Below are positions 5,604 to 29,366 of a DNA stretch of 64,000 bases, piece by piece; the first letter of the stretch is position 1, and each line of letters opens with the position of its first letter. The translations under genes and the position numbers were made by a program. The notes under the pieces were generated by a model that did not search any database, was not told the origin of the DNA, and saw nothing but the letters and a program-made list of their open reading frames with translations. This stretch comes from Enterobacteria phage vB_EcoM_IME340: sequence record MH051916. One strand, 5' to 3'.

Positions 5604-6197
5604 ATGAACACACTGAAGAAAATTGTTGAGTTTATTCGCACTAAACTTGGTTCTGCTATGGCTAAAAATCTATCTGTTGAAGAACAGTATACTGCCGCAG
5701 CAGCAAAACTGCTTGATAAAATTAAAGACCTAAAAACTGCTTCTGTTAAATCTATTAATGAAGAAAAACGTATTCGTGAACTTATTGTTGAAAAGAATAA
5801 ACAGGCTGAATCAAAAGAGCGTGAAATTCGCAAGCTTCTTTCCGAAGGTCAAGATGTAACAATGCATGCTAAACTCGGTTTGCTATATCGTCGAACAGCT
5901 GAACAGCTGACTACTAAAGCTGATGGTTATGCTGAAATGCGAATTGAAATCGCTAAGAAAGTAGTTGAGTTAGATGATGCTCGCCAAGAACTTGCAGTTA
6001 AATTGGAATATATCCGTGAAACTCGTGCAGCAAATGCCCTTGGAATTAGTACTGCTGATGATGTAGTTGAAATTGCAGCACTGACTAAGGTTGATATTGA
6101 AGATACTCTTGCTCGAGTTGAAACCTTTAATGGTAATATTTCTGGGGTTGAAACTACCTCTGCCGATGTTCAGGAATATATTAATTCTCTGAAATAA
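5604..6197 (+). CDS. coiled-coil protein (weak resemblance to PspA/IM30-type helical proteins)
   Basis: 197 aa, SD AAGGAAAT, strongly helical composition with heptad-like charge pattern; family assignment not established. Confidence 0.5.
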
Positions 6198-9938: not shown

Positions 9939-10517
9939 ATGAAAACGTATCAAGAATTTATTGCTGAAGCTTCTGTAGTAAAGGCCAAAGGCATTAATAA
10001 GGACGAGTGGAACTATCGTGGTGGAAACGGCTTTGACCCTAAAACAGCCCCTATTGAACGATACTTAGCTACAAAAGCTTCCGATTTTAAAGCTTTCGCT
10101 TGGGAAGGACTTCGCTGGCGTACCGATTTAAATATTGAAGTTGACGGACTTAAATTTGCTCATATTGAAGATGTTGTTGCTAGTAACTTAGACGCAGCTT
10201 TTGTTAAAGCCGACAGTGATCTTCGTCGCTGGAATTTAAAACTGTTCTCTAAACAAAAAGGCCCGAAGTTTGTGCCTAAAGCCGGTAAATGGGTCATTGA
10301 TAATAAATTAGCTAAGGCTGTCAACTACGCTGGTCTTGAATTCGCCAAGCACAAATCATCATGGAAAGGTCTTGATGCAATGGCTTTCCGTAAAGAATTT
10401 GCCGATGTTATGGCTAAAGGCGGCTTTAAGGCAGAAATAGATACCTCTAAAGGTACGTTTAAGGACGCTAATGTTCAGTACGCTTACGCCGTTGCTAATG
10501 CAGCCCGTGGTAATTAA
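9939..10517 (+). CDS. internal-protein-like protein (MKTYQEFIAEA N-terminus), 192 aa
   Basis: N-terminus identical to the canonical T4 Ip targeting peptide. Confidence 0.65.
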   Translation: MKTYQEFIAEASVVKAKGINKDEWNYRGGNGFDPKTAPIERYLATKASDFKAFAWEGLRWRTDLNIEVDGLKFAHIEDVVASNLDAAFVKADSDLRRWNLKLFSKQKGPKFVPKAGKWVIDNKLAKAVNYAGLEFAKHKSSWKGLDAMAFRKEFADVMAKGGFKAEIDTSKGTFKDANVQYAYAVANAARGN

Positions 10518-10694
10518 TAAGGCCGATACTTAGGCCTATTTACATTCAAATAACATGGGAACAACCTGGACCTCATGATTCTATGAGGGATTCCCGCCAA
10601 CCTGTAATAAGGTCGAGCCCAAGTGCGGTAATGGGTAAATACAGAAATGGACAATTCACGCGCCATGGAATGGCCCAAATTTAGAGAGAATAAA

Positions 10695-11237
10695 ATGAGA
10701 ACATTTTTAACTGGTCCTTATCTATCCCTGATGAATGCTTTTACACACCATTCTGATGCTAGAGTAGAAGAAATTTGTAATAGTGGATTTTATGTACCTG
10801 ATTCGCCACATTTATTTAAAGAATACTGCACACTTCGATTAGATGGTGGACGTCAATCCGGTAAATCAACTGCAGTAACTAATTTTGCCGCTAATTGGTT
10901 GTATGACGGTGGAACAGTTATTGTTCTTTCTAATACTTCAGCTTACGCTAAAATTTCTGCGGGCCACATTAAAAAAGAATTTTCACGCTATTCTAATGAT
11001 GATATTCGATTCCGTTTATTTACTGATTCTGTCCGTAGTTTTGTTGGTAATAGAGGTAGCAAGTTCAGAGGTTTATCGCTTTCGCGGATTTTGTATATAA
11101 TCGATGAGCCTGTTAAATCTCCTGATATGGATAAAATTTACGATATTCATATTGAAACTGTGCAATACTGCTGCAATAGTAAATGTTGCATTGGTGGTAT
11201 TACTCGTCCACAGTTTTTCGTAATTGGAATGCAATGA
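10695..11237 (+). CDS. small P-loop NTPase-like protein
   Basis: ATG 10695 after GAGAATAAA; Walker A GGRQSGKST and Walker B-like ILYIIDEP. Confidence 0.55.
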   Translation: MRTFLTGPYLSLMNAFTHHSDARVEEICNSGFYVPDSPHLFKEYCTLRLDGGRQSGKSTAVTNFAANWLYDGGTVIVLSNTSAYAKISAGHIKKEFSRYSNDDIRFRLFTDSVRSFVGNRGSKFRGLSLSRILYIIDEPVKSPDMDKIYDIHIETVQYCCNSKCCIGGITRPQFFVIGMQ

Positions 11238-16129: not shown

Positions 16130-16342
16130 ATGCTACAATTAACTGAAAAGCAACTTCGCAATCTTACTGTGCTTCAATTAGATGAAATTCGTAGGGAAGT
16201 TGGAAATATCATTTCAGCTTTGCGTCGAGAAGTATCACTCAACCAATCTCCGGCAGACTATACTAGATTGCGAAATTTTGAAAAATACCTTGATAAAGTT
16301 AAGGCCGTGCATCGGCATAAAGTAAATACAGGACAAAAATGA
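16130..16342 (+). CDS. hypothetical protein (rI.1 position)
   Basis: 70 aa ORF. Confidence 0.5.
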
Positions 16343-16354
16343 TAGGAGGCCTTT

Positions 16355-16648
16355 ATGGCCTTAAAAGCAACGGCACTTTTTGCCACGCTAGGATTGTCAT
16401 TTGTTTTATCTCCATCGATTGAAGCGAATGTCGATCCTCATTTTGATAAATTTATGGAATCTGGTATTAGGCACGTTTATACACTTTTTGAAAATAAAAG
16501 CGTAGAATCGTCTGAACAATTCTATAGTTTTATGAGAACGACCTATAAAAATGACCCGTGCTCTTCTGATTTTGAATGTATAGAACGAGGCGCGGAGATG
16601 GCACAATCATACGCTAGAATTATGAACATTAAATTGGAGACTGAATGA
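16355..16648 (+). CDS. rI: lysis-inhibition regulator RI (antiholin)
   Basis: 97 aa; MALKATALFA..LGLSFVLSPSIEANVDPHFDKFMESG.. matches remembered T4 RI. Confidence 0.9.
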   Translation: MALKATALFATLGLSFVLSPSIEANVDPHFDKFMESGIRHVYTLFENKSVESSEQFYSFMRTTYKNDPCSSDFECIERGAEMAQSYARIMNIKLETE

Positions 16649-17031
16649 AATTCAGCGACTTTTCACAAAGTGGAAAACCTTCAAAGGCAGATGAATACTT
16701 AGGTTTATTAATGGCTGCACAAGCTTATTTTCATTCTGCACATTTTGAAACTAAAAGTTATGCTAGACACAAAGCATACGATTTTATTTTCTCCGAGTTG
16801 CCAGATTTAATTGATAAATTTGGTGAGCAATATTTGGGGTATTCTGGTAGAAAATACACACCTTCAATTCCAGATGCCAGTAAACTTCCTACCGACACAA
16901 TTAAAATGATTGATCGCATACTAGACCAATCTAACAGCATTTATAAAGAAATGCCTCCAGCCATCCAAAGCACGATAGATGATATTACTGGAATGTTTTA
17001 CCAGAGTAAGTATCTTCTTTCCCTCGAATAA
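16645..17031 (+). CDS. hypothetical protein (rI.-1 position)
   Basis: 128 aa ORF overlapping rI stop. Confidence 0.55.
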
Positions 17032-17035
17032 CATT

Positions 17036-17058
17036 AGTCTCCTTCGGGAGACTTTTTT
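17036..17058 (+). terminator. rho-independent terminator
   Basis: GTCTCC-TTCG-GGAGAC hairpin followed by TTTTTT. Confidence 0.75.
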
Positions 17059-17068
17059 CATTTTACCG

Positions 17069-17101
17069 GTTTACTTTCCGTTTGAGCTGTGGTACTATAC
17101 A
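17069..17101 (+). promoter_or_regulatory. sigma70-type early promoter (shares GGTACTATACAACTATC core with the repeated cassettes)
   Basis: GTTTAC 17069-17074, -10 TACTAT 17094-17099. Confidence 0.6.
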
Positions 17102-17126
17102 ACTATCGGATAAAGAGGAGAACATC

Positions 17127-17315
17127 ATGAAAATTGAAGCACTCAATCAAGAAGGAAATATCTACGTCATCATTAACGGTGATTTTTTCGTCGACATGGA
17201 TGAAGTTACCAGTGAAGAACTTGAAGAACTTCTTAAGAAACGTTATGATATGTGTGATGAAGCTGCAACTCATATGGCGTGTGCAATATTCTCTCTTTCA
17301 TATGTGGTGGAATAA
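17127..17315 (+). CDS. small acidic protein
   Basis: ATG 17127 after AGAGGAGAACATC; 62 aa. Confidence 0.5.
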
Positions 17316-17518
17316 TGATTAGTATCGAACAAGCAGATAAAATTAAAGAATTGGTAGCTTTAATTCGCAAAGCAGATGAGGAACTTAGTGACTTTGCTTG
17401 GTTTTCGGCAGGCATTGCAAATAAAGGTATTGAAGAATTTGAAGCTAAAGTTGATAATGCTGTAGAAGCTTTAGATATGTTTCTTGATGAAATTATCGAT
17501 CACAATACGAGAGTTTAA
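17315..17518 (+). CDS. small helical protein, tandem paralog family
   Basis: ATG overlapping previous stop (TAATG); 67 aa. Confidence 0.5.
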   Translation: MISIEQADKIKELVALIRKADEELSDFAWFSAGIANKGIEEFEAKVDNAVEALDMFLDEIIDHNTRV

Positions 17519-17520
17519 GT

Positions 17521-17715
17521 ATGCTGACACACGAACAGTTTGAAAAAATCATTAAATTAGCACGTGATGTTGAAATAGATTCATATCAATTAGCAGTTGA
17601 GCATTGTGAAGGATATTCATACGAAGGTATAGCAGCAGCTAAAAGAGATTTGGATAAATCTAAAGCTAAGTTAGTTCAATATCTTGAAATGATTAGGTGG
17701 AATAATGAAAACTGA
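17521..17715 (+). CDS. small helical protein, tandem paralog family
   Basis: 64 aa; MLTHEQFEKIIKLA.. Confidence 0.5.
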   Translation: MLTHEQFEKIIKLARDVEIDSYQLAVEHCEGYSYEGIAAAKRDLDKSKAKLVQYLEMIRWNNEN

Positions 17716-17878
17716 AAAGCAGATGTTTTTAATGAAGCTAATTGAAGAATATGCTAATGCAGTTTCTGACTATGAGTGTTCTTCTCGTGAAAGGGGTATA
17801 GCTTTCGCAAAAGAAGAAATGAAAATCATGGTTGATGCTCACACAAAGCTTCAGAATTTTATTGAAAACGTCATTTAA
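17705..17878 (+). CDS. small helical protein, tandem paralog family (57 aa)
   Basis: ATG 17705 overlapping previous 3' end; below track cutoff. Confidence 0.4.
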   Translation: MKTEKQMFLMKLIEEYANAVSDYECSSRERGIAFAKEEMKIMVDAHTKLQNFIENVI

Positions 17879-17880
17879 CG

Positions 17881-17912
17881 GTTTACAAGTTGGCAAGGTT
17901 ATGGTATAGTAA
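17881..17912 (+). promoter_or_regulatory. sigma70-type early promoter
   Basis: GTTTAC 17881-17886, -10 TATAGT 17905-17910. Confidence 0.55.
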
Positions 17913-18042
17913 TCTTGTCAACTGCTAAGGAGAAGAGAATGAAAATTTTGTTTGTTGTGTATGTGATGATTCAATATAATTACCCAATGTTTACGTATAA
18001 TTTGGTGAACAACATTATTGATATTATTCAAAGGAGTATGTA

Positions 18043-18228
18043 ATGACAAGTGAGCAGGCTTTTAAATTAAGAGAATTAATTGAGACGTATAGTAGAGCTG
18101 TTCATACATCAACAATTATTGATGAATCAGCTTTCTCCGGACATGCTAACAAGATTAAATACAAAACTCTTATGGAAGAAGCTAAAGTAAATCTTGATTC
18201 TTATATTGAAACTTTAATTGGTAAATAA
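18043..18228 (+). CDS. small helical protein, tandem paralog family
   Basis: 61 aa; MTSEQAFKLRELIETY.. Confidence 0.5.
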   Translation: MTSEQAFKLRELIETYSRAVHTSTIIDESAFSGHANKIKYKTLMEEAKVNLDSYIETLIGK

Positions 18229-18229
18229 T

Positions 18230-18772
18230 ATGAAAGCTGTAATTGAAACAACTGATTTGTTCGGTGACCTGGTTATCGAAAAACGTGATAATGTATACGT
18301 TCTGACGCAGGAAGACGATAATATTACTATTCTTCCTATGGAACTGGCTGCGATTTTATCTTATGCTCCCTCAGGAGTTACCGGTGTAACTAATATTACA
18401 GGCGACCTCCAAGTTCGTTTTTATCGTGGCCTTTACGGCGGTAATATTGAAACTGAATTTATGTGTCTTTCTATCAACAATTGGGCAACATTCGTTACCA
18501 AGGTGAAAGAATTCTTGGAATCTGAAACAATCGAAACACCCGAAAAGGCTAAACTTCAATGGGCTAAAGATCGCGGTGCTAGCATTATTAATCCAGTAGC
18601 TGCAAATTATACTACGACTTTGGATGTCAAGACTTCTTATGAAGATGGCGATGTCGTACTTGTTCGCCAAATTGATGATTCTCGAGCACATATTGTCACA
18701 TTTACCAAAGACGAAGCTATTGCACTAAAGACTTATCTTGATTCTGTCATTCCAACTATGATTTCAAAGTGA
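18230..18772 (+). CDS. hypothetical protein, paralog of 18779-19300
   Basis: ATG 18230; C-terminus ..KTYLDSVIPTMISK resembles ..IKYLTTVTPSMKG of next gene. Confidence 0.55.
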   Translation: MKAVIETTDLFGDLVIEKRDNVYVLTQEDDNITILPMELAAILSYAPSGVTGVTNITGDLQVRFYRGLYGGNIETEFMCLSINNWATFVTKVKEFLESETIETPEKAKLQWAKDRGASIINPVAANYTTTLDVKTSYEDGDVVLVRQIDDSRAHIVTFTKDEAIALKTYLDSVIPTMISK

Positions 18773-18778
18773 GGAAAT

Positions 18779-19300
18779 ATGTTTATTTCAAGTGGAAGTG
18801 GTTTAATTCGCGTTGAATTTAAAAATGACATCTTTCTTATTCAAGGAGATGATATTATTAAAATGAGTTATGACGAAATCAAGAAAATTTGTCATGCTCT
18901 TGAAAGTCATGGAAAAGTGAACGCTGTTATTGATATTGGCGATTTATGGGTGACACTTTATGAAGTATCCGAAGGATTTAACATTGAAGATGAAAATAAC
19001 ATTTTAGCTATTGATAAAAGAACTGATTTGTTTGATGTATTAAAAGCCTATGAGCAGTCAAATGGCGGAAGAAAAGCTGTATTGATTTATCAAAAACCGC
19101 ATTCATGTGGAACTGCTTCAATCATTTCAAATATTGAAGGCGAAGTTGATACTTATATGTGTGTTTTAAAAGCTGGTGGTGACCGTCATCCGGATTTTAT
19201 TTCTATTCGTCAAAACAATGAAGAAATTTCATTGTCAAAATCAGAAGCTGAAGCTATGATTAAGTATTTAACAACCGTTACGCCTTCAATGAAAGGATAA
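18779..19300 (+). CDS. hypothetical protein, paralog of 18230-18772
   Basis: 173 aa ORF with SD GAGGAAATATG. Confidence 0.55.
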   Translation: MFISSGSGLIRVEFKNDIFLIQGDDIIKMSYDEIKKICHALESHGKVNAVIDIGDLWVTLYEVSEGFNIEDENNILAIDKRTDLFDVLKAYEQSNGGRKAVLIYQKPHSCGTASIISNIEGEVDTYMCVLKAGGDRHPDFISIRQNNEEISLSKSEAEAMIKYLTTVTPSMKG

Positions 19301-19302
19301 TT

Positions 19303-19764
19303 ATGATTATTAATGAAAACTCTTGGCACTATAAATTATTCAAATTGTTTAACGATGAATGGCAACGACCTAAGACACTATGCGCATATTTTTGGTCTAT
19401 TGCCATACCTACATTTTTCGTTTCTATTTTTGGGTGTGCTATACTCGTAGGGTTAACAATTATTTGTGCAGAAAGCCTACAACGTTGGCTTATTTTCGGT
19501 AGTTTATGGACTCTTCTTCCATCGGCATTTATACTTGCGCTTTTGGTTGTTTTACTTATTATCGGTTCATTTGTTATTCCTGCACATTTGCGTGAAAAAT
19601 ATAAAGATTATAAATGGAAAAAGGATTATGCTTTACACGTAGAAAATATTGATAGGGCGTATAAAGGTTTACCTCCTATTCAACCCAAGAAATCGATTAT
19701 CGTTGAATTTTTAAAAGCTCGTAAAGCTAAAGTATGTCCTGTTATTGAATATAAGGCTGAATGA
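19303..19764 (+). CDS. membrane protein
   Basis: 153 aa with three hydrophobic helices. Confidence 0.55.
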   Translation: MIINENSWHYKLFKLFNDEWQRPKTLCAYFWSIAIPTFFVSIFGCAILVGLTIICAESLQRWLIFGSLWTLLPSAFILALLVVLLIIGSFVIPAHLREKYKDYKWKKDYALHVENIDRAYKGLPPIQPKKSIIVEFLKARKAKVCPVIEYKAE

Positions 19765-20774
19765 TGAAAACAGTAATGAAAAGCTATTTTGGTAGTCATC
19801 TTTATGGAATTTCTACTCCAGAATCTGATGTAGATTTTAAAGAAATCTTTGTTCCTCCTGCTCGCGATATTCTTATTGGAAACGTCAAAGAGCACATGAG
19901 TAAAAACACTAACAACACATCATCTAAAAACACTAAAGATGATATTGACCATGAACTATACAGTCTTAAGTATTTCTTTAAATTAGCAGCAGATGGTGAA
20001 ACTGTAGCATTGGATATGCTTCACACTCCACCTGAACTAGTGGTTAAATCTGATTTGCCTGATGTGTGGAAGTTTATTCAAGACAACCGTTCTCGTTTTT
20101 ATACGACTAACATGAAATCCTATTTAGGATATGTCCGCAAGCAAGCTTCTAAATATGGTGTTAAGGGTTCTCGTTTGGCCGCATTGCGTGATGTATTGAA
20201 AGTAGTTAATCAAATCCCCGATCAGTGGGTTGATTACCGAGAAGATGGAACACAAGGACAACGTCGTACTAAAATTGCAGATATTAAACACCGTCTTCCA
20301 GAAAACGAATTCTGCGAATGGGTATTTCATAATCATGAGAAAACAGGCCCGCAAACGTTCTATACTGTGTTGGGTCGTAAATATCAGACAACGCTTTCTC
20401 TTATTGAGCTTAAGCAGTCTTTGAATAAACTTGATGCTGAATATGGTGAACGCGCTCGTAAGGCTGAAGCTAATGAGGGCATTGACTGGAAAGCTCTGAG
20501 TCATGCTTGCCGTGGTGGACTCCAACTATTGGAAATTTACAAAACTGGTGACTTAGTCTATCCACTTCAAGACGCTCCATTTATTCTCGACGTGAAGTTG
20601 GGTAAACATCCATTTAAAACTGTTCAAGAGTTTTTGGAAGATGTGGTCGATCAAGTAGAAGCAGCATCCATTGAAGCTTCTAAGAACGGTATGCAGCAAA
20701 AAGTAGACATGGGTTTCTGGGATGACTTCCTTGAGAGGGTTTATCTTGAAAACCACCGAAGTTATTATAAATGA
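19761..20774 (+). CDS. Pol-beta-superfamily nucleotidyltransferase-like protein
   Basis: N-terminal GS-x10-DVD motif (YFGSHLYGISTPESDVDFKEIFV) followed by a helical C-terminal domain; 337 aa. Confidence 0.6.
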   Translation: MMKTVMKSYFGSHLYGISTPESDVDFKEIFVPPARDILIGNVKEHMSKNTNNTSSKNTKDDIDHELYSLKYFFKLAADGETVALDMLHTPPELVVKSDLPDVWKFIQDNRSRFYTTNMKSYLGYVRKQASKYGVKGSRLAALRDVLKVVNQIPDQWVDYREDGTQGQRRTKIADIKHRLPENEFCEWVFHNHEKTGPQTFYTVLGRKYQTTLSLIELKQSLNKLDAEYGERARKAEANEGIDWKALSHACRGGLQLLEIYKTGDLVYPLQDAPFILDVKLGKHPFKTVQEFLEDVVDQVEAASIEASKNGMQQKVDMGFWDDFLERVYLENHRSYYK

Positions 20775-20776
20775 TA

Positions 20777-20800
20777 GGGAGCCTTCGGGCTCCCTTTTTT
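20777..20800 (+). terminator. rho-independent terminator
   Basis: GGGAGCC-TTCG-GGCTCCC followed by TTTTTT. Confidence 0.8.
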
Positions 20801-20804
20801 ATTT

Positions 20805-20889
20805 CAAAATTTTTTTCACAAAACGGTTTACAAGCATAAAGCTTTATGGTACTATACAACTATCAACTGATACGGATTTGGAGAATAAA
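20805..20889 (+). repeat. repeated early promoter-leader cassette (PeSL-like), copy B
   Basis: Near-identical to 4955-5051 and 47226-47314 from the A/T tract through GGAGAATAAAATG. Confidence 0.75.
20825..20856 (+). promoter_or_regulatory. sigma70-type early promoter
   Basis: GTTTAC 20825-20830, -10 TACTAT 20849-20854. Confidence 0.65.
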
Positions 20890-21858
20890 ATGAAAACTGT
20901 AACTATCAATAAGGGTATCTACTTCGGTAAAGAAATCTCTGGAACTTTTGAGCTCTTAGGCGAATGGTTCCCAGATAATGCTCCGGTAGATGCACAAGGA
21001 GATGGTAAAGTTTTTGTTGAAATTGACGGTAAACGTCGCGGTGTTTGGGTTTACAAATCAGATATTTCATATGATGGTGTAAAAGTTGAAGAAGTTAAAG
21101 AATCGTATGAAGATATGAAAACCCGCATTAATAAAAGATTTAATGTTATGGGAATGATGACGAATGGTATTATTAATGGAAATATTCGTTCATTAATTAT
21201 CTCTGGCGCAGCAGGTATTGGTAAAACGTATTCTTTAGATAAAGCTTTAAATAAAGCAAATGATAATGGATACATTGAATATAAAAGCATTAATGGTAAA
21301 ATCTCTGGTATTGGTCTTTATGAGCAGCTTTGGAATAATCGTGAAGAGAATTCTGTCCTTTTGATTGATGATGTGGATGTTTTTTCTGATATGGACATTC
21401 TTAATCTTCTGAAAGCTGCTCTGGACACTGGAGAGACCCGTAAAGTCTGCTGGAGCACTGCATCTTCTTACTTAGAAGAAAAAGGCATTGACCGTGAGTT
21501 TGAATTTAAAGGAACGATTGTTTTTATCACAAACGTTGACATTGACCGCGAATTAGACCGTGGTACTAAACTTGCCCCACACTTACAAGCATTAGTGTCA
21601 CGCTCAGTTTATTTGGATTTGGGTGTTCACACTAATGAAGAAATTATGGTCAGGGTTGAAGATGTTATTCTTTCAACTGACATGATGCAAAAGCGCGGTC
21701 TTTCTGATGAAGAAACTTATAAAGCATTATCATGGATGAAAGTTAATGTTAATCGTTTACGCAATGTTTCACTGCGTACTGCTCTTTATCTTGCTGACTT
21801 TATTATGACCGACAAAAACGGTTGGGAAGAAATTGCTGAGGTTACTCTTCTGAAATAA
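20890..21858 (+). CDS. AAA+ ATPase-like protein
   Basis: ATG 20890 after GGAGAATAAA; Walker A GAAGIGKT, Walker B VLLIDDVD, sensor-like FITN; track ORF 20722 is a spurious extension through the promoter. Confidence 0.65.
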   Translation: MKTVTINKGIYFGKEISGTFELLGEWFPDNAPVDAQGDGKVFVEIDGKRRGVWVYKSDISYDGVKVEEVKESYEDMKTRINKRFNVMGMMTNGIINGNIRSLIISGAAGIGKTYSLDKALNKANDNGYIEYKSINGKISGIGLYEQLWNNREENSVLLIDDVDVFSDMDILNLLKAALDTGETRKVCWSTASSYLEEKGIDREFEFKGTIVFITNVDIDRELDRGTKLAPHLQALVSRSVYLDLGVHTNEEIMVRVEDVILSTDMMQKRGLSDEETYKALSWMKVNVNRLRNVSLRTALYLADFIMTDKNGWEEIAEVTLLK

Positions 21859-21959
21859 TTCATAAGAGGACTTCTATGACAAAAAGGCAGTTCAGAAATA
21901 GATTATATGGACTGCCATTAAAAAGATGACTAGAATTAAACTGGTAAATGGAGGTAGTG

Positions 21960-22262
21960 ATGTTATACTCAAAGGCTCGTGAAATTTACGAAACTAAGAT
22001 TAAAGAAGCTGTATTTCAATTTGCAACGACAATGCGATGGACAAATGACTGGGAGTATTCAAAAAATCATAAGAAGCCCATGGTGACAAGAAAGGCTCAC
22101 ATGTTAGTGTTAATAGACCGTGAGCAGATTAAAGCCCGAGAAGCCCTCCAGAATCATAAAAAGGCTGCCTTTGAATGGTTTATGGATAACACTGCTCCCG
22201 AGACTAAGAAAGCAGTGAGCGCATGGTTCAGTGGAAAAAATTGTGAAAGAAGTTTCTTTTAG
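21960..22262 (+). CDS. hypothetical protein
   Basis: ATG 21960 after GGAGGTAGTG; 100 aa. Confidence 0.5.
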   Translation: MLYSKAREIYETKIKEAVFQFATTMRWTNDWEYSKNHKKPMVTRKAHMLVLIDREQIKAREALQNHKKAAFEWFMDNTAPETKKAVSAWFSGKNCERSFF

Positions 22263-22264
22263 TG

Positions 22265-22296
22265 GTTTACAAGACTGTTCCTCTGTGGTACTATAC
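22265..22296 (+). promoter_or_regulatory. sigma70-type early promoter (partial PeSL-like cassette)
   Basis: GTTTAC 22265-22270, -10 TACTAT 22289-22294, followed by ACAACTATCAACT. Confidence 0.6.
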
Positions 22297-22322
22297 AACT
22301 ATCAACTACGGAGGAACACAAA

Positions 22323-22850
22323 ATGAACGCTAAAGATATTTTCAACTTGGTAAATTACAACGATGGTAAATTTAAATCTGAAGCACAAAGTAAGTTCTTT
22401 AATGACATCTCAATCGGAGGTGAAATCACTGTTGATGGAGGACAAATTTACAAATCCCGTTGGAATTGGATCGTTATTATCGATGAGATTGGTATTGTAG
22501 AAATTTACAAGAATACGAATAAAAATCGTACATTACACTGGTCTCGTGATACTAACGAACAGTACAAAAAGGATAAAGCATCTAAATTATCTCGTGTAAC
22601 TCAAGAAGATATTGAGTTCATCAAGAAAGATATTTTAATGTATGATAATTTAATTGCTGAAGAGCAAGCTGTTATTGATAAATTTGACGAGATTAAAGCT
22701 TCTCGTGAAATTCCTGATTTTATGAAAGAATCAGTGAATGAACGATACACTCTCATTTCAGAGCGTATTGAAACTTACAAAAAGCAAAGAGCTGAACGCC
22801 AAAATACTCTTCGGAAGTTTGAAGAACGGTTAAAGACGGTACTCGCATAA
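22323..22850 (+). CDS. hypothetical protein
   Basis: 175 aa ORF with SD GGAGGAACAC. Confidence 0.55.
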   Translation: MNAKDIFNLVNYNDGKFKSEAQSKFFNDISIGGEITVDGGQIYKSRWNWIVIIDEIGIVEIYKNTNKNRTLHWSRDTNEQYKKDKASKLSRVTQEDIEFIKKDILMYDNLIAEEQAVIDKFDEIKASREIPDFMKESVNERYTLISERIETYKKQRAERQNTLRKFEERLKTVLA

Positions 22851-22852
22851 CC

Positions 22853-22876
22853 GCTTTATACCAAGGATGGTATAAT
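22853..22876 (+). promoter_or_regulatory. possible MotA-dependent middle promoter
   Basis: GCTTTA (MotA-box-like) 12 bp upstream of TATAAT at 22871-22876. Confidence 0.35.
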
Positions 22877-22905
22877 GGTTCTAAGCCCTTTTAATTGAGA
22901 TTATT

Positions 22906-23313
22906 ATGAAACAGTTGATAATTAAAAGATTGAATTTATTGATATGTTGTTTATGTGTAGTAGTTGCATACGGTTATTACGCAATTAATGATTATATGCA
23001 CTATAAAGATTATGATGTTACTGTAGTTAATACTATTACAGGAACACAAGGAAAAGGGTCTAGTTTATCGTTTATTGCCGTATATGAACTCAAAGACGGT
23101 TATAGATTTAGTGAATATATTTCCCCAGAGATGTATTCTTCAATAGAAAAAGGTGATAATATTACTGTAAGTTTACGTCCTTTCGACGTAAAACAGACAC
23201 TGTTTGATAATATTATTTGGTTCTTTGGGATGGTATTAGTTCAATCTGTGTGTGGTGCTTACGTAGTCTGTTCCATCTTATTCTGTATATTTAGTAAAAT
23301 TGAAATTGAGTGA
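22906..23313 (+). CDS. membrane protein
   Basis: 135 aa with N- and C-terminal hydrophobic helices. Confidence 0.5.
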   Translation: MKQLIIKRLNLLICCLCVVVAYGYYAINDYMHYKDYDVTVVNTITGTQGKGSSLSFIAVYELKDGYRFSEYISPEMYSSIEKGDNITVSLRPFDVKQTLFDNIIWFFGMVLVQSVCGAYVVCSILFCIFSKIEIE

Positions 23314-23320
23314 GGAAAAT

Positions 23321-24211
23321 ATGTCAGTCGTAATTAATAATGTCAATGCAGTAATTAAATCTTTAGTTAATAAAAAAATGATGAATGAATGGACTGTATT
23401 TCGTCGTGGAGAGCCAGATAAATTTTTTCATAGATTTAACCCAACTTTGGATTTGAATGTTATTGACAGAGATGTTCATGCCGAAATTTTAGATAAGTTT
23501 AAAGTTGATATTGGCTTTGGATTAGAAAAACATTTACAGCGAACAAATGGGTCTGGAATGAGTTTATCTAATCGCATTATGAAAGCCCTTAATAAAATTG
23601 GAGCGTTGTCTCGTATTAATGCGAGTGAAATCCTTCGTAATTATAATAAAGGATATGACCTTTATGGTCGACTAATGCCGAAATTATCATTCGATCAAAT
23701 GATAGCGGATTTGTGGGAAAATCAACGACGATTATTAGCATTAGGCGCTCGATTAGCTAAAGGTCTAGATAAACAAATGATTTTTAAGACCAATAATACA
23801 GAAGACCTTAAATGCTTTAAATTTAGTATTCGTGGAGATGATTATTACATCAGAGCTCGCTCTACAGATTATGTTAATATGGGGCATCATCTCTGTTTGG
23901 CTTTTGAAGTTTTAAAAGAAGCTGGAACATTAGAATATTCATCTGGTGCAAAATGCCCTATTGGTTCAAGTTGTATTTTAATTTATCGCCCGGATGAATC
24001 CAGTTCAACTAAATTGCCTACGAAACCTGTACCAGTTCGTAGTAACGAAAAACATTCTGAACAAATTGATTATTTTAATAAACAGATTGAAGAGCTGAAT
24101 ATTTCTATTCAACAATATGACGATGAAATTTTCAGACTATCTGGATTGAGTAGTAAAGCTAAATCTGAGCGTGAAAAGTTAATTAAAATTGTTGATTTAC
24201 TTAAATCTTAA
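23321..24211 (+). CDS. hypothetical protein with C-terminal coiled coil (array member 1 of 4)
   Basis: ATG 23321 after GAGGAAAATATG; ~250 aa globular part plus heptad-rich tail. Confidence 0.55.
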   Translation: MSVVINNVNAVIKSLVNKKMMNEWTVFRRGEPDKFFHRFNPTLDLNVIDRDVHAEILDKFKVDIGFGLEKHLQRTNGSGMSLSNRIMKALNKIGALSRINASEILRNYNKGYDLYGRLMPKLSFDQMIADLWENQRRLLALGARLAKGLDKQMIFKTNNTEDLKCFKFSIRGDDYYIRARSTDYVNMGHHLCLAFEVLKEAGTLEYSSGAKCPIGSSCILIYRPDESSSTKLPTKPVPVRSNEKHSEQIDYFNKQIEELNISIQQYDDEIFRLSGLSSKAKSEREKLIKIVDLLKS

Positions 24212-24219
24212 GGAACACT

Positions 24220-25248
24220 ATGAAAACTCGTTCTCAAATTGAAGATATGGTTCGTAACGCTAGCGATACTCGTGATGTTATGACATTTTTGTGTGAAAAT
24301 AATTTAGATTTTGATAAAGTTAATCGTGCTATTCATCACTTTAAATATCTGAATAGCAGTGAATGGGTGCGTAATTTTAGTAAAGCAGGGTATATTACGC
24401 AAATGACTGCTCGTGAGCAGCTCACCGATTTCTGTAAAACTATTGATTATAAAAATCCTCTATTTGTTCAAGGCGTTGGTCAAAGTAAGGTCAATTTATC
24501 ATCTGGATTTTTCAATCCAAATCATTATCGTATTGAATGGAGATTTATTGCTCTGTTCCGTAGACAATTAAAGCAAATTTTATCAACTGCGAGTCGATTA
24601 AAAGGTTCTGATATTAACTTAAAGAATCTGAAATTTGATGGTTATACTCTTCAGATGGAAGTAAGACCATTAAAAGAAAATAATAGAACCGCACGAATTA
24701 GCTTTAAACCTAATACAAAAAATTCTCTTTCAATTTGTGAATGCCTTAAATCACAGTTGACAGAAGCATTTAAGTATATGGATGTTGTTGCTGGTGTTCA
24801 GTCTAAGATTTCAAAGCATTTCGAACGATTTAAATTAGACACAACAACATATGAACTTGATATGATCGTTTCATTTAAATACGATTTTTTGAGAAAGGAT
24901 GAAGTCACGCAAGAGAAAAAGCAGGAAGTGCAAGATAACTTAAATTTAAATTTATCCAATTACTCATCAAACGATCCTAAATTTTGGATGTATAGTTCAG
25001 GTAATAAGGATGCATGGAAATTCAATAAAGTGAATTTTCTTCCTGTTGAAAATCCGAGTCTTAAACCTGTTGAAAAATGGCATGCTGATGCGATTGAGAA
25101 GTCTATCAAGGCAGTAGATGATGAACTCGTTAAAGCAACTAATGAAGTGTTAGAAGCTGAAAAGATGTTAGAAAAAGCTCAAGAAAAAGTCAAAAATCTC
25201 ACGAAGCAACGTTCTAAACTGAACAATGCACTAAATGCACTGAACTAG
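24220..25248 (+). CDS. hypothetical protein with C-terminal coiled coil (array member 2 of 4)
   Basis: 342 aa; SD AAGGAACACTATG; C-terminal tail ..EKAQEKVKNLTKQRSKLNNALNALN. Confidence 0.55.
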   Translation: MKTRSQIEDMVRNASDTRDVMTFLCENNLDFDKVNRAIHHFKYLNSSEWVRNFSKAGYITQMTAREQLTDFCKTIDYKNPLFVQGVGQSKVNLSSGFFNPNHYRIEWRFIALFRRQLKQILSTASRLKGSDINLKNLKFDGYTLQMEVRPLKENNRTARISFKPNTKNSLSICECLKSQLTEAFKYMDVVAGVQSKISKHFERFKLDTTTYELDMIVSFKYDFLRKDEVTQEKKQEVQDNLNLNLSNYSSNDPKFWMYSSGNKDAWKFNKVNFLPVENPSLKPVEKWHADAIEKSIKAVDDELVKATNEVLEAEKMLEKAQEKVKNLTKQRSKLNNALNALN

Positions 25249-25279
25249 TTTACTTTACCACAAGGATGTGGTATAATGT
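25248..25279 (+). promoter_or_regulatory. sigma70-type early promoter
   Basis: GTTTAC 25248-25253, -10 TGGTATAAT ending 25277. Confidence 0.55.
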
Positions 25280-25305
25280 TCTTACTTTCTACTGAGGAGA
25301 TTAAT

Positions 25306-26307
25306 ATGACTCGTAACGAATATATCAAATCATTCAACAGCGTTATTGATGATAAAGCTATACCGATGTTTGGCCAAAATAGCGTTATTTCCATTATCAA
25401 TCAATGGCTCAATAGTGTTGACGCAAGTATTGTTTCTTCTGTTAAATTTATTCATGAAATTCGTAAAATTTCTAGCCGTGTAGATAAAGATGTTATCAAG
25501 AAAGCCTTTAAAGAGTCTCGTCTTCTTTCATATTTGGTTAATCGGGATATTCTTGGTAATTTTGGGAAAGAAATTAAACGAACCAAAGATGTAGTAGGAT
25601 ATAATTGGTTCGGTGATGTTAATTCTTATCATCTTAATGTCAAAGAAGACCCCGAGAATATTTTTACTCGTCGTTGGATTAGTAATTTCAGACTTTTCAA
25701 AGGACAGATTCTAAAATCAGCTTCTAAATTATGTTATGGCGATTATCGTCAAATTCATCCTTTGGCTTCTGATATGATTATCATAAAAGAATATGAACTT
25801 GATAAAAATAAAGTATCTATTTTTGTGAATTATGGATTTTTTACACCAGAAACTAATCAAAAGAACATTAATAAATTTTTCTCAATTGCTAGCACTATAA
25901 CTCGTCAATTAGAGACTGCACTACTTTGTATGGAAACGGTAGAAAATATTCATACTTATCCTTTTAAGAATATGTGCGGTTGGGAAGGATATAAAATTGT
26001 AGTTAGTCTTCGTGAAGTGAAATGTGCTTATTCACCGACTGATAAAGAAATTTACCAACAAAAATGTGATGAAATTGTGAATACTCCTAAAGAAGAAACT
26101 ACACTTGAGGAACTAATGGATAATCTTGATGATTCGCCTGAACCCGTAGAAATTCGTCCAGAAGTTATTGCACTAGAAAAAGCTTATAAAGAAGCTCTAG
26201 AAATTTCTAATAAAGCGCAGAAAGAATATGAGCAGGCTAAAAGGATTTGGGAAGAATCTGTTAATCGCCTTGATCGTTTAGAACAAGCTTTACAGTTAAT
26301 TAAGTAA
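25306..26307 (+). CDS. hypothetical protein with C-terminal coiled coil (array member 3 of 4)
   Basis: ATG 25306 after GAGGAGATTAAT; tail ..SVNRLDRLEQALQLIK. Confidence 0.55.
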   Translation: MTRNEYIKSFNSVIDDKAIPMFGQNSVISIINQWLNSVDASIVSSVKFIHEIRKISSRVDKDVIKKAFKESRLLSYLVNRDILGNFGKEIKRTKDVVGYNWFGDVNSYHLNVKEDPENIFTRRWISNFRLFKGQILKSASKLCYGDYRQIHPLASDMIIIKEYELDKNKVSIFVNYGFFTPETNQKNINKFFSIASTITRQLETALLCMETVENIHTYPFKNMCGWEGYKIVVSLREVKCAYSPTDKEIYQQKCDEIVNTPKEETTLEELMDNLDDSPEPVEIRPEVIALEKAYKEALEISNKAQKEYEQAKRIWEESVNRLDRLEQALQLIK

Positions 26308-26359
26308 TTTAAAGCCAAGGATGGCTCGGAGTATAAATCATTAACCAAGTGAGAAGAAC

Positions 26360-27289
26360 ATGAAAACTCGTAAACATTATATTGATTATTTTGATAGTCT
26401 TATTACTAAACACCGTAATTATCAAATCGGGCACAGAGCAGTAATCAATAATATTCTTCGTGATTTCCTTCAATATGTTGGCCAAGAAAATCATATCTGT
26501 AAAGATACACAGAACGCTTATTCTCATTCGTTGGGCAATTTGCTTGAATGGTTTAAACGTTCTCGTATGTTATCTTCTACTGTAGCTCGCGATAACATTA
26601 AAAACTTTATGAAGCCGAGCTTTATTAAATCTGAGACATCTATAACTGATTTGGTTGAATTTACTATTGTTAACGATGTTAAAAAGACTCATTTGGCTGA
26701 TTGGTTATCTACCATTCCTGAAACTAAATTTGCTGATAAATTTGCTTGTCAATTCAATGACCAAGTGAATATGCTTTTTAAGCATGCTCGCAAACTGTTT
26801 ACTGCGGGCGATGACCGTACAAATACAGTTCATGTTAAGGACTGGGTTATTGCTGATGAAGTAACACACAAGCCAGGTGGTTCATCAGTATTAATTAATA
26901 TCCAGGTTCCTTATTATTACTCACGTAATCTCGGCACCATGACAGCTAGAGAAATTAATAAGCACAACAAAACTATTCGTTCGTTATCTTATAAACTTCG
27001 CATGATGTTAAAAATCATGGACGTAGTAGAAATGTATGACGAAACCGAAAATAATGGTTCAATGTTATACAGTTCACGTATTCTAATTAAACTGAAGAAC
27101 CCTAATACATATAAGCCAGTTGTAAAAGAACCTAAAGTAGAAAAGGTTGATAACCTGAGCGAAGAACGCGAATATCTCAATGCTCGTTTGATTGAAGTTG
27201 AAGCCCAGATTGCCGAACACACCAAATTGTTAAAAGCTCTTAATGCAAAAGCAAATGGTTTACGCAATGCTATTGAGGTATTGAAATGA
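26360..27289 (+). CDS. hypothetical protein with C-terminal coiled coil (array member 4 of 4)
   Basis: 309 aa; tail ..[19 protein letters not shown]. Confidence 0.55.
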   Translation: MKTRKHYIDYFDSLITKHRNYQIGHRAVINNILRDFLQYVGQENHICKDTQNAYSHSLGNLLEWFKRSRMLSSTVARDNIKNFMKPSFIKSETSITDLVEFTIVNDVKKTHLADWLSTIPETKFADKFACQFNDQVNMLFKHARKLFTAGDDRTNTVHVKDWVIADEVTHKPGGSSVLINIQVPYYYSRNLGTMTAREINKHNKTIRSLSYKLRMMLKIMDVVEMYDETENNGSMLYSSRILIKLKNPNTYKPVVKEPKVEKVDNLSEEREYLNARLIEVEAQIAEHTKLLKALNAKANGLRNAIEVLK

Positions 27290-27603
27290 AAAAGCGTCTA
27301 TTAGAAGATATTGCAGCTTCAAGTAATTCCAGTCTAATTAAAATTATTATGGCTGGTGAAGAAGACGATCTGGAAATGCGTGGAAAGATTCATGGTTGCG
27401 ATGATTTAGACTTTAAACCTCCAGCCTGGGATGCCATTATGGTTATGGTTGAACGCCGCGAAAGGGCTTCTAAAAACGTTCCTAATTGCCCTGAATGTGG
27501 AACTGAACAGGTTCAATTAATTCATTGGCAGACTAGTAATCTTCGTTATAAATGCCGTCATTGCAAACATCGATTTGAGAGAGAAGAAAATGACCAAGCG
27601 TAA
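27286..27603 (+). CDS. zinc-ribbon protein
   Basis: 105 aa; CPECG..(17)..CRHCKH motif. Confidence 0.5.
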
Positions 27604-27832
27604 AGAATATATGGAGATTGCTGAAAAAGCAGTCCGTGAATTAGCAATAGCTTATTATAATGAACACGGTAAATTTCCTGATAGATACAGCGTGCTTAAA
27701 TCTGCTTTAACTCGTTCATATAAAAATATGCTATCAGAAGTAAGTGATATTATATACAAATATAAAGAACAAACTGGCCAAAGTCTTGATTATGACGAGA
27801 CTTTTAAACAAGTACTAGGAATTAAGGAATAA
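27590..27832 (+). CDS. hypothetical protein
   Basis: ATG 27590; 80 aa. Confidence 0.45.
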
Positions 27833-27833
27833 T

Positions 27834-28097
27834 ATGTTTAAAGTATATGGTTATGATAGCAACATCCATAAATGTGTGTATTGCGATAATGCAAAACGTC
27901 TTTTGACTGTGAAGAAACAGCCGTTTGAATTTATCAACATTATGCCGGAAAAAGGTGTTTTTGATGATGAGAAAATTGCTGAGCTTCTGACTAAACTAGG
28001 TCGTGATACTCAAATCGGATTGACGATGCCTCAGGTATTTGCTCCTGATGGAAGTCATATTGGTGGATTTGACCAATTGCGGGAATACTTTAAATGA
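27834..28097 (+). CDS. nrdC: thioredoxin/glutaredoxin NrdC
   Basis: 87 aa; CVYC active site; matches remembered T4 NrdC. Confidence 0.9.
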   Translation: MFKVYGYDSNIHKCVYCDNAKRLLTVKKQPFEFINIMPEKGVFDDEKIAELLTKLGRDTQIGLTMPQVFAPDGSHIGGFDQLREYFK

Positions 28098-28309
28098 TGC
28101 TCGAAGGAACTGATTATATCCATGACTACCGCGGAAGCGCGGTATATGTTGGTGATGAGGTTGCAGTTTATTATGGGTATGGAACTTTGATGACAGCAAA
28201 GGTTATTCAAATTAAAAATGGCCGCGCTAAACTTGAAGTTTATTATTCTAATGGTGAAAAGTCTATTTCTAAATGGAAATATGGCGATTGCATGGTTAAA
28301 CTGGGGTAA
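28094..28309 (+). CDS. hypothetical protein
   Basis: 71 aa ORF overlapping nrdC stop. Confidence 0.45.
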   Translation: MMLEGTDYIHDYRGSAVYVGDEVAVYYGYGTLMTAKVIQIKNGRAKLEVYYSNGEKSISKWKYGDCMVKLG

Positions 28310-28311
28310 AT

Positions 28312-28620
28312 ATGATTTACGATGTTGATGCAGTTTTGAGCGAAATAATCGAAGACCATGATGCATTTTCAGAAAATTATGATTTCGATTTTTCGGATTA
28401 TCTTAAACCTGTCGAAATAGAAGACTGGGTGCAAGACGGTAAATGTCAATATCGTCAGTGTGTTTATTTTAGTCCAAAACATAATGTACATGTTTCCGTA
28501 AATGAATGCCGTTCAGGTTCTTATCATTCTGACTGGTATTATGCAGTTCCTACTGTTGAACTAGTCGAACCTCGAGAACGTGTAGTAACTCAGACAATAC
28601 GAGAATGGATTACGCTATAA
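28312..28620 (+). CDS. hypothetical protein
   Basis: 102 aa ORF. Confidence 0.5.
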   Translation: MIYDVDAVLSEIIEDHDAFSENYDFDFSDYLKPVEIEDWVQDGKCQYRQCVYFSPKHNVHVSVNECRSGSYHSDWYYAVPTVELVEPRERVVTQTIREWITL

Positions 28621-28673
28621 AACCCTGGTGGGCGGCTAGATGGGAAACTGTAGAGCCAGAGCCGGAAGAATCG

Positions 28674-28704
28674 GTTTACACTGATGAAGAAACAGTATAT
28701 AATG
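28674..28704 (+). promoter_or_regulatory. sigma70-type early promoter
   Basis: GTTTAC 28674-28679, -10 TATATAAT about 18 bp downstream. Confidence 0.45.
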
Positions 28705-28743
28705 AACCTACAATAAATGACATAATTGATATGGAGATGGGAC

Positions 28744-29190
28744 ATGATTACAGTAGATAAGTGGTTTAGAATTAATCGTGCTGATAAAGAGCTGTGTAAT
28801 TACTGGCCAGAACTTAGTGCAGGTACTGTCTTTAAAGTTCGTGAACTTGTAAAAGAATGTGAAGATGATATAGAACCTGATACTGGAATTATTGAAATTG
28901 AACTTTCTGATGGAAAGATTATTAACATCTACGATAAGCCAATTACGTATTGGTGCTTATGGAATACTGAATCAGTAGAAAATGGCGAAATTGAAGAAGT
29001 TGTAGAACGAGTTGATCAAGCTATTCATAAACCTAAAGCCGCTTTTCAAGGTGAACGTATTTCATATGCATTAGCTAAATTAGCTGCGCAAGAAAATAAC
29101 GATGGTTATGAAGGAAATTTGATGCAAGCTGCGGCAGAATATATTGAATGGCTTGAAACTCAAATTTCTTTTTCTGACCGAGCGTTTTAA
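28744..29190 (+). CDS. hypothetical protein (location corresponds to T4 pin region)
   Basis: ATG 28744 after GGAGATGGG; 148 aa acidic protein. Confidence 0.5.
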   Translation: MITVDKWFRINRADKELCNYWPELSAGTVFKVRELVKECEDDIEPDTGIIEIELSDGKIINIYDKPITYWCLWNTESVENGEIEEVVERVDQAIHKPKAAFQGERISYALAKLAAQENNDGYEGNLMQAAAEYIEWLETQISFSDRAF

Positions 29191-29366
29191 TGAAAACTGA
29201 ATTGGTTTATACTGAAAAGTTAAATGGTGGTAAGGTTTGGAAACTTTTTATTAAAGGAAGTCCTACCGACTCTAATATGACCACTTGTGTAGGAACTTAT
29301 TCTCGTCCTACTAAAAAGATGATTCGGCAATATAAGCGATTGCATCGAATGTTTTACAATACTTGA
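29190..29366 (+). CDS. small basic protein (58 aa)
   Basis: ATG overlapping previous stop; below track cutoff. Confidence 0.35.
   Translation: MKTELVYTEKLNGGKVWKLFIKGSPTDSNMTTCVGTYSRPTKKMIRQYKRLHRMFYNT

Follow-up and report, generated by a model that had tools for sequence, protein, structure and literature searches.

Four consecutive genes on the plus strand of Enterobacteria phage vB_EcoM_IME340 (record MH051916), located between positions 23,321 and 27,289 of the 64,000-nucleotide (nt) stretch analyzed here (the window), almost certainly are anciently duplicated paralogues that make up a single superfamily. They are the counterparts of nrdC.6, nrdC.5, nrdC.4, and nrdC.3 of phage T4, and we regard them as old paralogues because profile-profile comparisons, fold comparisons based on AlphaFold2 (AF2) models and BFVD, and a natural chimera in Salmonella phage Manna all agree. 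T4 is the best-studied phage, and about half of its genes are without a known function. Since the four genes are known T4 open reading frames (ORFs), one of them with a published function, they do not amount to a novel type of system. Measured against the databases and papers searched, what seems to be new is the unification of three protein families, a domain map, a fold-level lead, and three further counter-defense candidates.

Identity and order of the four genes

Over the 4.6 kb around the array, the window was 96 to 97% identical at the DNA level to many Tequatrovirus (T4-like) phages, which by this measure identifies its source as a phage of that group; the array is reversed relative to the T4 map. 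All four ORFs were found on the plus strand where a preliminary description of the window, made from the sequence alone, had placed them. They correspond to nrdC.6 (23321 to 24211; 296 amino acids [aa]; Pfam PF26899, Phage_T4_Y05B; phrog_2257), nrdC.5 (24220 to 25248; 342 aa; PF23882, DUF7235; phrog_2351), nrdC.4 (25306 to 26307; 333 aa; PF26897, Phage_T4_Y04OP; phrog_1435), and its paralogue nrdC.3 (26360 to 27289; 309 aa; PF26897; phrog_1435). Their order matches that in phages ime09 and T4 (nrdC.6-nrdC.5-nrdC.4-nrdC.3, collinear between nrdC.7 and nrdC.2), a Shine-Dalgarno-like sequence precedes each of them, and the four start codons agree with the T4 and ime09 annotation. For nrdC.4, the start at 25306 is the right one, because the longer ORF would begin inside the −10 box of a promoter. 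The encoded proteins were 98.5% (NrdC.6, over 259 aa), 93.9% (NrdC.5), 95.8% (NrdC.4), and 61% (NrdC.3) identical to those of T4.

Homologues of the four genes were present in 550 to 740 phage records, and the ratios of nonsynonymous to synonymous substitution rates (dN/dS) calculated against T4 and ime09 were 0.05 to 0.28; on both grounds, the ORFs are real genes. NrdC.5 matched PF23882 in hmmscan with an E value of 1.5e-124 and 415.9 bits (cutoff, 30 bits), from residues 1 to 342 of the protein and 1 to 307 of the 307 profile positions. PF26897 or PF26899 was the precomputed assignment of every close homologue (88 to 99% identical) of NrdC.4, NrdC.3, and NrdC.6, and the corresponding PHROGs matched the window proteins at E values of 1e-117 to 1e-168.

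Common ancestry of NrdC.6, NrdC.5, NrdC.4, and NrdC.3

Pfam and PHROGs distribute the four genes over three unconnected families of unknown function, grouping only NrdC.4 with NrdC.3 (PF26897 and phrog_1435). Among the four proteins, BLASTP likewise detected only the NrdC.4-NrdC.3 pair (25% over 275 aa; E value, 7.5e-8), in keeping with the weak primary similarity noted in the preliminary description, and neither pairwise BLASTP nor shallow profiles gave a link beyond this pair. An exhaustive HMMER search of 1.84 billion representatives with an NrdC.4+NrdC.3 profile returned 11 matches, with no NrdC.5 or NrdC.6 members and no nonphage relatives; because all 11 lie within the NrdC.4/NrdC.3 family, HMMER alone fails to bridge the families.

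Profile-profile comparison did bridge them. Profiles were built from nonredundant family alignments obtained in three database searches, together with related phage loci, and were compared using hhalign. NrdC.4 and NrdC.3 matched each other with probabilities of 98.5 to 99.3%, and NrdC.5 matched the NrdC.4+NrdC.3 profile with a probability of 95.8% (E value, 6.8e-9; 145 columns). NrdC.6 matched the merged profile of NrdC.3, NrdC.4, and NrdC.5 with probabilities of 84.5% in local mode and 95.9% in global mode. Adding one Karamvirus homologue to the NrdC.6 profile gave values of 95 to 97%, and 91.9% when the tails were removed. Controls remained low, at 0.4 to 1.2% for the reversed NrdC.6 profile and 0.3 to 0.5% for unrelated neighbors (nrdC.10, nrdC.8, and NrdD). 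The three pairwise local alignments were centered on the same two core motifs, in a mutually consistent register.

Folds were compared between the AF2 models of NrdC.6 and NrdC.4. The order of elements is identical in the two (N-terminal helices, helical hairpin, beta-hairpin, long helix, beta-hairpin, linker, and terminal helix), and when the proteins were aligned from sequence alone, their AF2 secondary structures agreed at 70% of positions, versus a mean of 39% and a maximum of 53% for shifted controls. In BFVD, distant proteins from T4-like phages of Acinetobacter and Enterobacter (A0A7G3KGN9, A0A345AUV5, E5EPQ6, and E5E4A2) were matched by both models, with a probability of 1.00 and E values of 1e-4 to 2e-7. 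In Salmonella phage Manna (PP987310, 5215 to 6252), nrdC.5 is deleted and the N-terminal part of NrdC.6 is joined in frame to the C-terminal part of NrdC.4, with the crossover inside a motif common to both paralogues (IQQYDDEI/YQQKCDEI).

The preliminary description had allowed for two possibilities, an old duplicated family or four unrelated proteins with convergent tails, and had proposed HHalign and structure prediction as a check. Convergence of Lys/Glu-rich helical tails on unrelated proteins would accommodate the silence of BLASTP for five of the six pairs and the three separate Pfam/PHROG families, and coiled coils are able to yield spurious similarity. It is nonetheless very improbable in view of profile probabilities of 84 to 99% that stay near 92% without the tails and are accompanied by clean controls, of the consistent motif register, of the likeness of the NrdC.6 and NrdC.4 models in element order, secondary structure register, and distant BFVD targets, and of the heptad register, counted from the C terminus, and the terminal motif L..A(L/I)..LK that all four tails have in common. 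Both lines of the proposed check thus favored the duplicated family.

Domain architecture and C-terminal tails

The four proteins share a four-part layout that consists of variable N-terminal helices, a conserved core, a disordered linker, and a heptad-repeat C-terminal helix. In the core, a helical hairpin that contains the motifs "k.SRLLS..v.RD.L..F.K" and "W..F....iLk.A.kL..GD.R" precedes a beta-hairpin/long-helix/beta-hairpin sandwich. In the NrdC.6 model (mean predicted local distance difference test [pLDDT] score, 77.6), N-terminal helices, the conserved helical-hairpin core, and the beta-hairpin/helix/beta-hairpin module form the globular part, which is followed by a disordered linker (about aa 223 to 245) and a two-helix tail. 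In the NrdC.4 model (pLDDT, 83.9), the disordered linker leads into a single 48-residue C-terminal helix. This map can guide mutagenesis of the proteins.

The claim of the preliminary description that all four proteins end in heptad-rich helical tails was borne out by a 3.5-residue periodicity and, for NrdC.6 and NrdC.4, by the AF2 helices. The tails are 45 to 60 aa long and poor in proline and glycine. We averaged hydrophobicity over each family alignment for the last 48 to 60 residues and compared its periodicity with that of 2,000 shuffles; the top period was 3.5 for NrdC.6, NrdC.5, and NrdC.4 and 3.4 for NrdC.3, and only 2 to 12 of the 2,000 shuffles reached the observed power across the four families. 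The tail of NrdC.6 (24056 to 24208; aa 246 to 296; 12 shuffles) contains AF2 helices at residues 246 to 272 and 278 to 295, and that of NrdC.4 (26158 to 26304; aa 285 to 333; 3 shuffles) contains one at residues 285 to 332. The corresponding segments of NrdC.5 and NrdC.3 are at 25075 to 25245 (aa 286 to 342; 2 shuffles) and at 27146 to 27286 (aa 263 to 309; 5 shuffles at a period of 3.5), all on the plus strand. When the window's 75 plus-strand ORFs with lengths of 100 aa or more were ranked by tail heptad signal, the four genes took ranks 1 (NrdC.4), 2 (NrdC.5), 5, and 9. The tails are therefore described here as of the coiled-coil type, and they may oligomerize. A Lys/Glu-rich C-terminal helix also occurs in the product of nrdC.8 (22323 to 22850, 175 aa; heptad rank, 13 of 75), for which hhalign detected no profile similarity to the superfamily.

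Distribution and natural variation

All matches in the three homologue searches belonged to the same three Pfam families, and all significant fold matches of the NrdC.6 and NrdC.4 models in BFVD were phage proteins; no relatives outside the T4-like phages (Straboviridae) were found in the HMMER, homologue, and BFVD searches. The check across related phages suggested in the preliminary description gave one to four copies per phage. In the phages examined, there were four copies in Tequatrovirus (window, T4, and T6), three in Dhakavirus and Gaprivervirus (NrdC.6, NrdC.5-like, and NrdC.4) and in Mosigvirus (NrdC.6, NrdC.5-like, and NrdC.3), two in Tegunavirus, and, within the region examined, one in Karamvirus, Jiaodavirus, and Lazarusvirus. 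We also encountered the full array within a Tequatrovirus region (16238 to 29248) of a 489-kb contig of an Escherichia coli assembly (GCA_025336695.1, JAODFN010000001.1). The NrdC.5 homologue on this contig was rejected as a transferred gene, given that a whole Tequatrovirus genome region is present, and the contig probably reflects contamination or a join made during assembly rather than an integration.

Within Tequatrovirus, individual members of the array have been lost or rearranged in nature. Phage ACG-C40 (5805 to 6216) retains only nrdC.6 together with stubs of nrdC.5 and nrdC.3, Pinarejo (6001 to 6141) is without nrdC.6, the protein P0056 is an nrdC.5/nrdC.3 fusion, and an 82-aa tandem duplication lies inside nrdC.6 of Shigella phage Sf25. 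The gene nrdC.3 exists as two deeply diverged alleles. The window allele is 61% identical to that of T4 (synonymous divergence [dS], 1.1) and 79% identical to that of the Mosigvirus phiC120, and its flanking genes are 94 to 100% identical to those of T4; these values point to an old allele exchange at a single gene. In the T4 reference (NC_000866), nrdC.6 (10067 to 10894, minus strand) encodes only 275 aa owing to a 1-nt deletion (GAGCTGAATATT to GAGCTGATATT; window positions 24095 to 24110). The HIDEN-SEQ supplement lists T4 nrdC.6 at 891 nt, and the frameshift is either a defective copy or stock variation or else a reference error.

Close alleles differed most in the N-terminal helices and the linker and least in the motif core; the tails were as conserved as the core in NrdC.6 and NrdC.4 and less so in NrdC.5 and NrdC.3. 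For the most part, this is the pattern expected of a conserved scaffold that presents a variable recognition surface. Selection on the four genes is purifying, as measured by the gene-wide dN/dS given above. The suggestion that the family is diversifying under selection was thus not upheld; from the natural variants and the purifying dN/dS, we conclude that the diversity stems from replaced alleles, deletions, and paralogues recombined in frame and not from fast point substitution.

Evidence for a counter-defense role

T4 nrdC.5 was reported to let a T4 deletion mutant plate again on E. coli cells carrying the ECOR17 Dsr1 sirtuin defense, a SIR2/NADase system, and NrdC.5 alone, expressed from a plasmid, was sufficient for this rescue (Srikant, Guegler, and Laub, eLife 2022; PMC9391042). 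The window orthologue is 94% identical to the T4 protein, belongs to the same length class, and occupies the same slot between nrdC.6 and nrdC.4, and by virtue of this identity it very probably has anti-Dsr1 activity as well. The same study described neither the paralogy of NrdC.5 with the products of nrdC.6, nrdC.4, and nrdC.3 nor the domain architecture, both of which are described here, and our literature search found no paper on the mechanism of NrdC.5. For nrdC.5, the earlier statement that no known function could be assigned to these genes is therefore out of date.

The genomic surroundings provide additional clues. The product of nrdC.1 (27590 to 27832), two genes downstream of the array, inhibits Septu (preprint 10.1101/2025.11.20.689424), Gp49.2, encoded further on, inhibits OLD (PMC13096335), and pin, in the surrounding region, inhibits the Lon protease. 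Because the Septu and OLD inhibitors are nearby, we place the array in a counter-defense island. The nrdC.1-6 block is deletable (PMC9825161), and all four genes were scored "Non-essential" on K-12 (HIDEN-SEQ supplement).

With a proven antagonist and three distant paralogues side by side, NrdC.6, NrdC.4, and NrdC.3 are good immune evasion candidates, and the chances that they do have counter-defense roles appear evenly balanced. The guess of an anti-defense array in the preliminary description thus holds for NrdC.5 and finds no reported phenotype for the other three. In this way, three "hypothetical proteins" become specific testable candidates against Dsr1/Avs7-type or other defenses.

Proposed mode of action and alternatives

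Taking these observations together, we consider it fairly probable that the four proteins are paralogous, early, modular counter-defense proteins with different targets, each a direct binder oligomerized by its tail. The globular part would be a direct, stoichiometric binder of a host immune protein, for which DSAD1 acting on DSR2 offers a precedent (PMC10981675, PMC10973363). DSAD1, another phage protein, is a functional counterpart that silences a SIR2-domain NADase by binding, in competition with the triggering structural protein; unlike NrdC.5, it comes from a Bacillus SPbeta-like phage lineage, and the two have no sequence or fold relationship. Their targets also differ in what they sense, namely, the tail tube for DSR2 and the major capsid protein for Dsr1, whose sensor is common to Avs7 (preprint 10.64898/2026.01.04.697583). 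The coiled-coil tail, in turn, would oligomerize the inhibitor and thereby confer avidity or disturb the assembly of an activated defense oligomer. Finally, the paralogues would differ in target specificity, following the pattern of Ip1, Ip2, and Ip3 of T4, an accessory set in one T-even genome of which each member blocks a different GmrSD variant (PMC12373910). Those proteins are apparently nonhomologous, packaged in the capsid, and injected, whereas NrdC.3 to NrdC.6 are homologous and expressed from early promoters after injection.

Several points weigh against this proposal. The effect of NrdC.5 on Dsr1 could be indirect, as direct binding is what we infer, and the case for tail oligomerization is built on the heptad periodicity and on long helices that stand alone in models of the monomers. 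The frameshift in the reference T4 nrdC.6 removes the coiled-coil tail, and gene-wide dN/dS (versus T4 and ime09) gave no sign of positive selection. Searches of Pfam, NCBIfam, PADLOC, and PDB sequences for known relatives returned nothing significant; none yielded a homologue whose structure has been solved or whose biochemistry is annotated. Lastly, nrdC.5 alone has a phenotype and nrdC.6, nrdC.4, and nrdC.3 have no known target; the accessible parts of the HIDEN-SEQ screens give no defense phenotype for these three.

This last point would be expected if the four were host takeover or housekeeping accessory proteins, possibly joined through their tails in a hetero-oligomer, with the anti-Dsr1 action of NrdC.5 as a side effect, e.g., of a changed timing or level of the capsid protein or of changed NAD+ metabolism. 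The joint retention of the four genes in nearly all Tequatrovirus genomes, the alikeness of their C-terminal motifs and registers, and purifying rather than diversifying selection are also in line with such a role. We nonetheless regard it as rather unlikely, since plasmid-borne NrdC.5 acts by itself on Dsr1 cells, the variation from one to four copies across genera and the loss of single members in natural phages speak against an obligate complex, the neighborhood is rich in proven defense inhibitors, and none of the four genes is needed on K-12.

A different view of the binding step starts from the predicted fold. In the AF2 models, the globular domain has an alpha/beta half that resembles tail terminator or tail completion proteins (lambda gpU 3fz2, gene transfer agent [GTA] 6tba_4A, T5 p142, Mu, and SPP1 gp17-like tail terminators), a borderline likeness that may serve as a fold-level lead and that has no support at the sequence level, where no Pfam or PDB match to gpU-like proteins was obtained. 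If it is taken at face value, NrdC.3 to NrdC.6 might be early "plug" or decoy proteins, in which a domesticated tail-terminator-like alpha/beta domain is set on an oligomerizing coiled-coil stalk and fills the ligand cleft of a different structural-protein-sensing receptor variant in each case (Dsr1/Avs7-type and relatives). The clefts would then be occupied before the late structural proteins appear, and the phage would be pre-emptively hidden from pattern recognition. We consider this version quite unlikely. A structural or assembly role for the four proteins themselves in the tail or neck has very little probability: the alpha/beta likeness is in its favor, and this likeness does not make them tail components, because the genes are nonessential and belong to a region with early promoters and the tail label of nrdC.5 in T6 is an annotation transfer artifact.

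Misleading labels in database records

The T6 label, "tail sheath stabilizer and completion protein" (AP018814), was rejected as a shifted annotation transfer; nrdC.8 and nrdC.9 are mislabeled in the same record. Many GenBank records label nrdC.2 to nrdC.11, including the four genes of the array, as "thioredoxin." This label is an artifact, because it derives from the positional "nrdC.x" gene names, and it was not retained here, as searches of Pfam and NCBIfam gave no thioredoxin or glutaredoxin match and the AF2 topology of NrdC.6 and NrdC.4 is unrelated. In HY01, PEC04, and HZ_ZJUN4, an extra label, "Mur ligase domain-containing protein," stands under the match and is likewise an annotation transfer artifact. 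Residues ~30 to 86 of NrdC.3 (26360 to 26620) weakly matched the N-terminal SAM-like domain of XerD (E value, 0.002 to 0.012) and Pfam Phage_int_SAM_1 (E value, 0.08), far short of curated cutoffs; this segment is probably simply a small helical bundle.

Promoters

According to the preliminary description, two of the four genes have promoters of their own. For nrdC.4 this is clear, as a T4 early-type promoter on the plus strand (25248 to 25277; GTTTAC ... TGGTATAAT, i.e., GTTTAC-N18-TATAAT) lies in the 57-nt gap before the gene, and the annotation of phage SA20RB, a 97%-identical relative, marks the equivalent site as a T4 early promoter. Before nrdC.3, there is only a weak and doubtful plus-strand site (26308 to 26337; TTTAAA-18-TATAAA), which was missed by the promoter scan and carries no annotation in SA20RB, the closest annotated relative; from its sequence, it may be a decayed promoter. 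A third plus-strand site, of the T4 middle type (22853 to 22876; GCTT-N14-TATAAT), lies upstream of nrdC.7 and is annotated in SA20RB as a T4 middle promoter beside a terminator. The genes nrdC.7, nrdC.6, and nrdC.5 are packed with gaps of 7 to 8 nt and are probably served by this site as one unit. PMC9391042 terms nrdC.5 an early, uncharacterized gene, which, together with the promoter before nrdC.4, points to expression of the array early in infection.

The three promoter-like intergenic regions have a spacer motif in common, CCAAGGATGG (22861 to 22870, 25259 to 25270, and 26315 to 26324), which takes the form CCACAAGGATGTGG before nrdC.4 and is followed by 7 extra bases ahead of TATAAA in the copy before nrdC.3. 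The motif partly overlaps "gtggTAtaaT" of the T4 early-promoter consensus.

The neighboring gene nrdC.10

Upstream of the array, the longest ORF of nrdC.10 (20722 to 21858) encodes 378 aa, and annotated homologues start at approximately position 20890 (322 aa). Because the extension contains a strong terminator-like hairpin (20776 to 20795), the short form is likely the gene. Its product is a P-loop/AAA-type NTPase present in 1,310 phage records, a far wider spread than that of the four-gene array.

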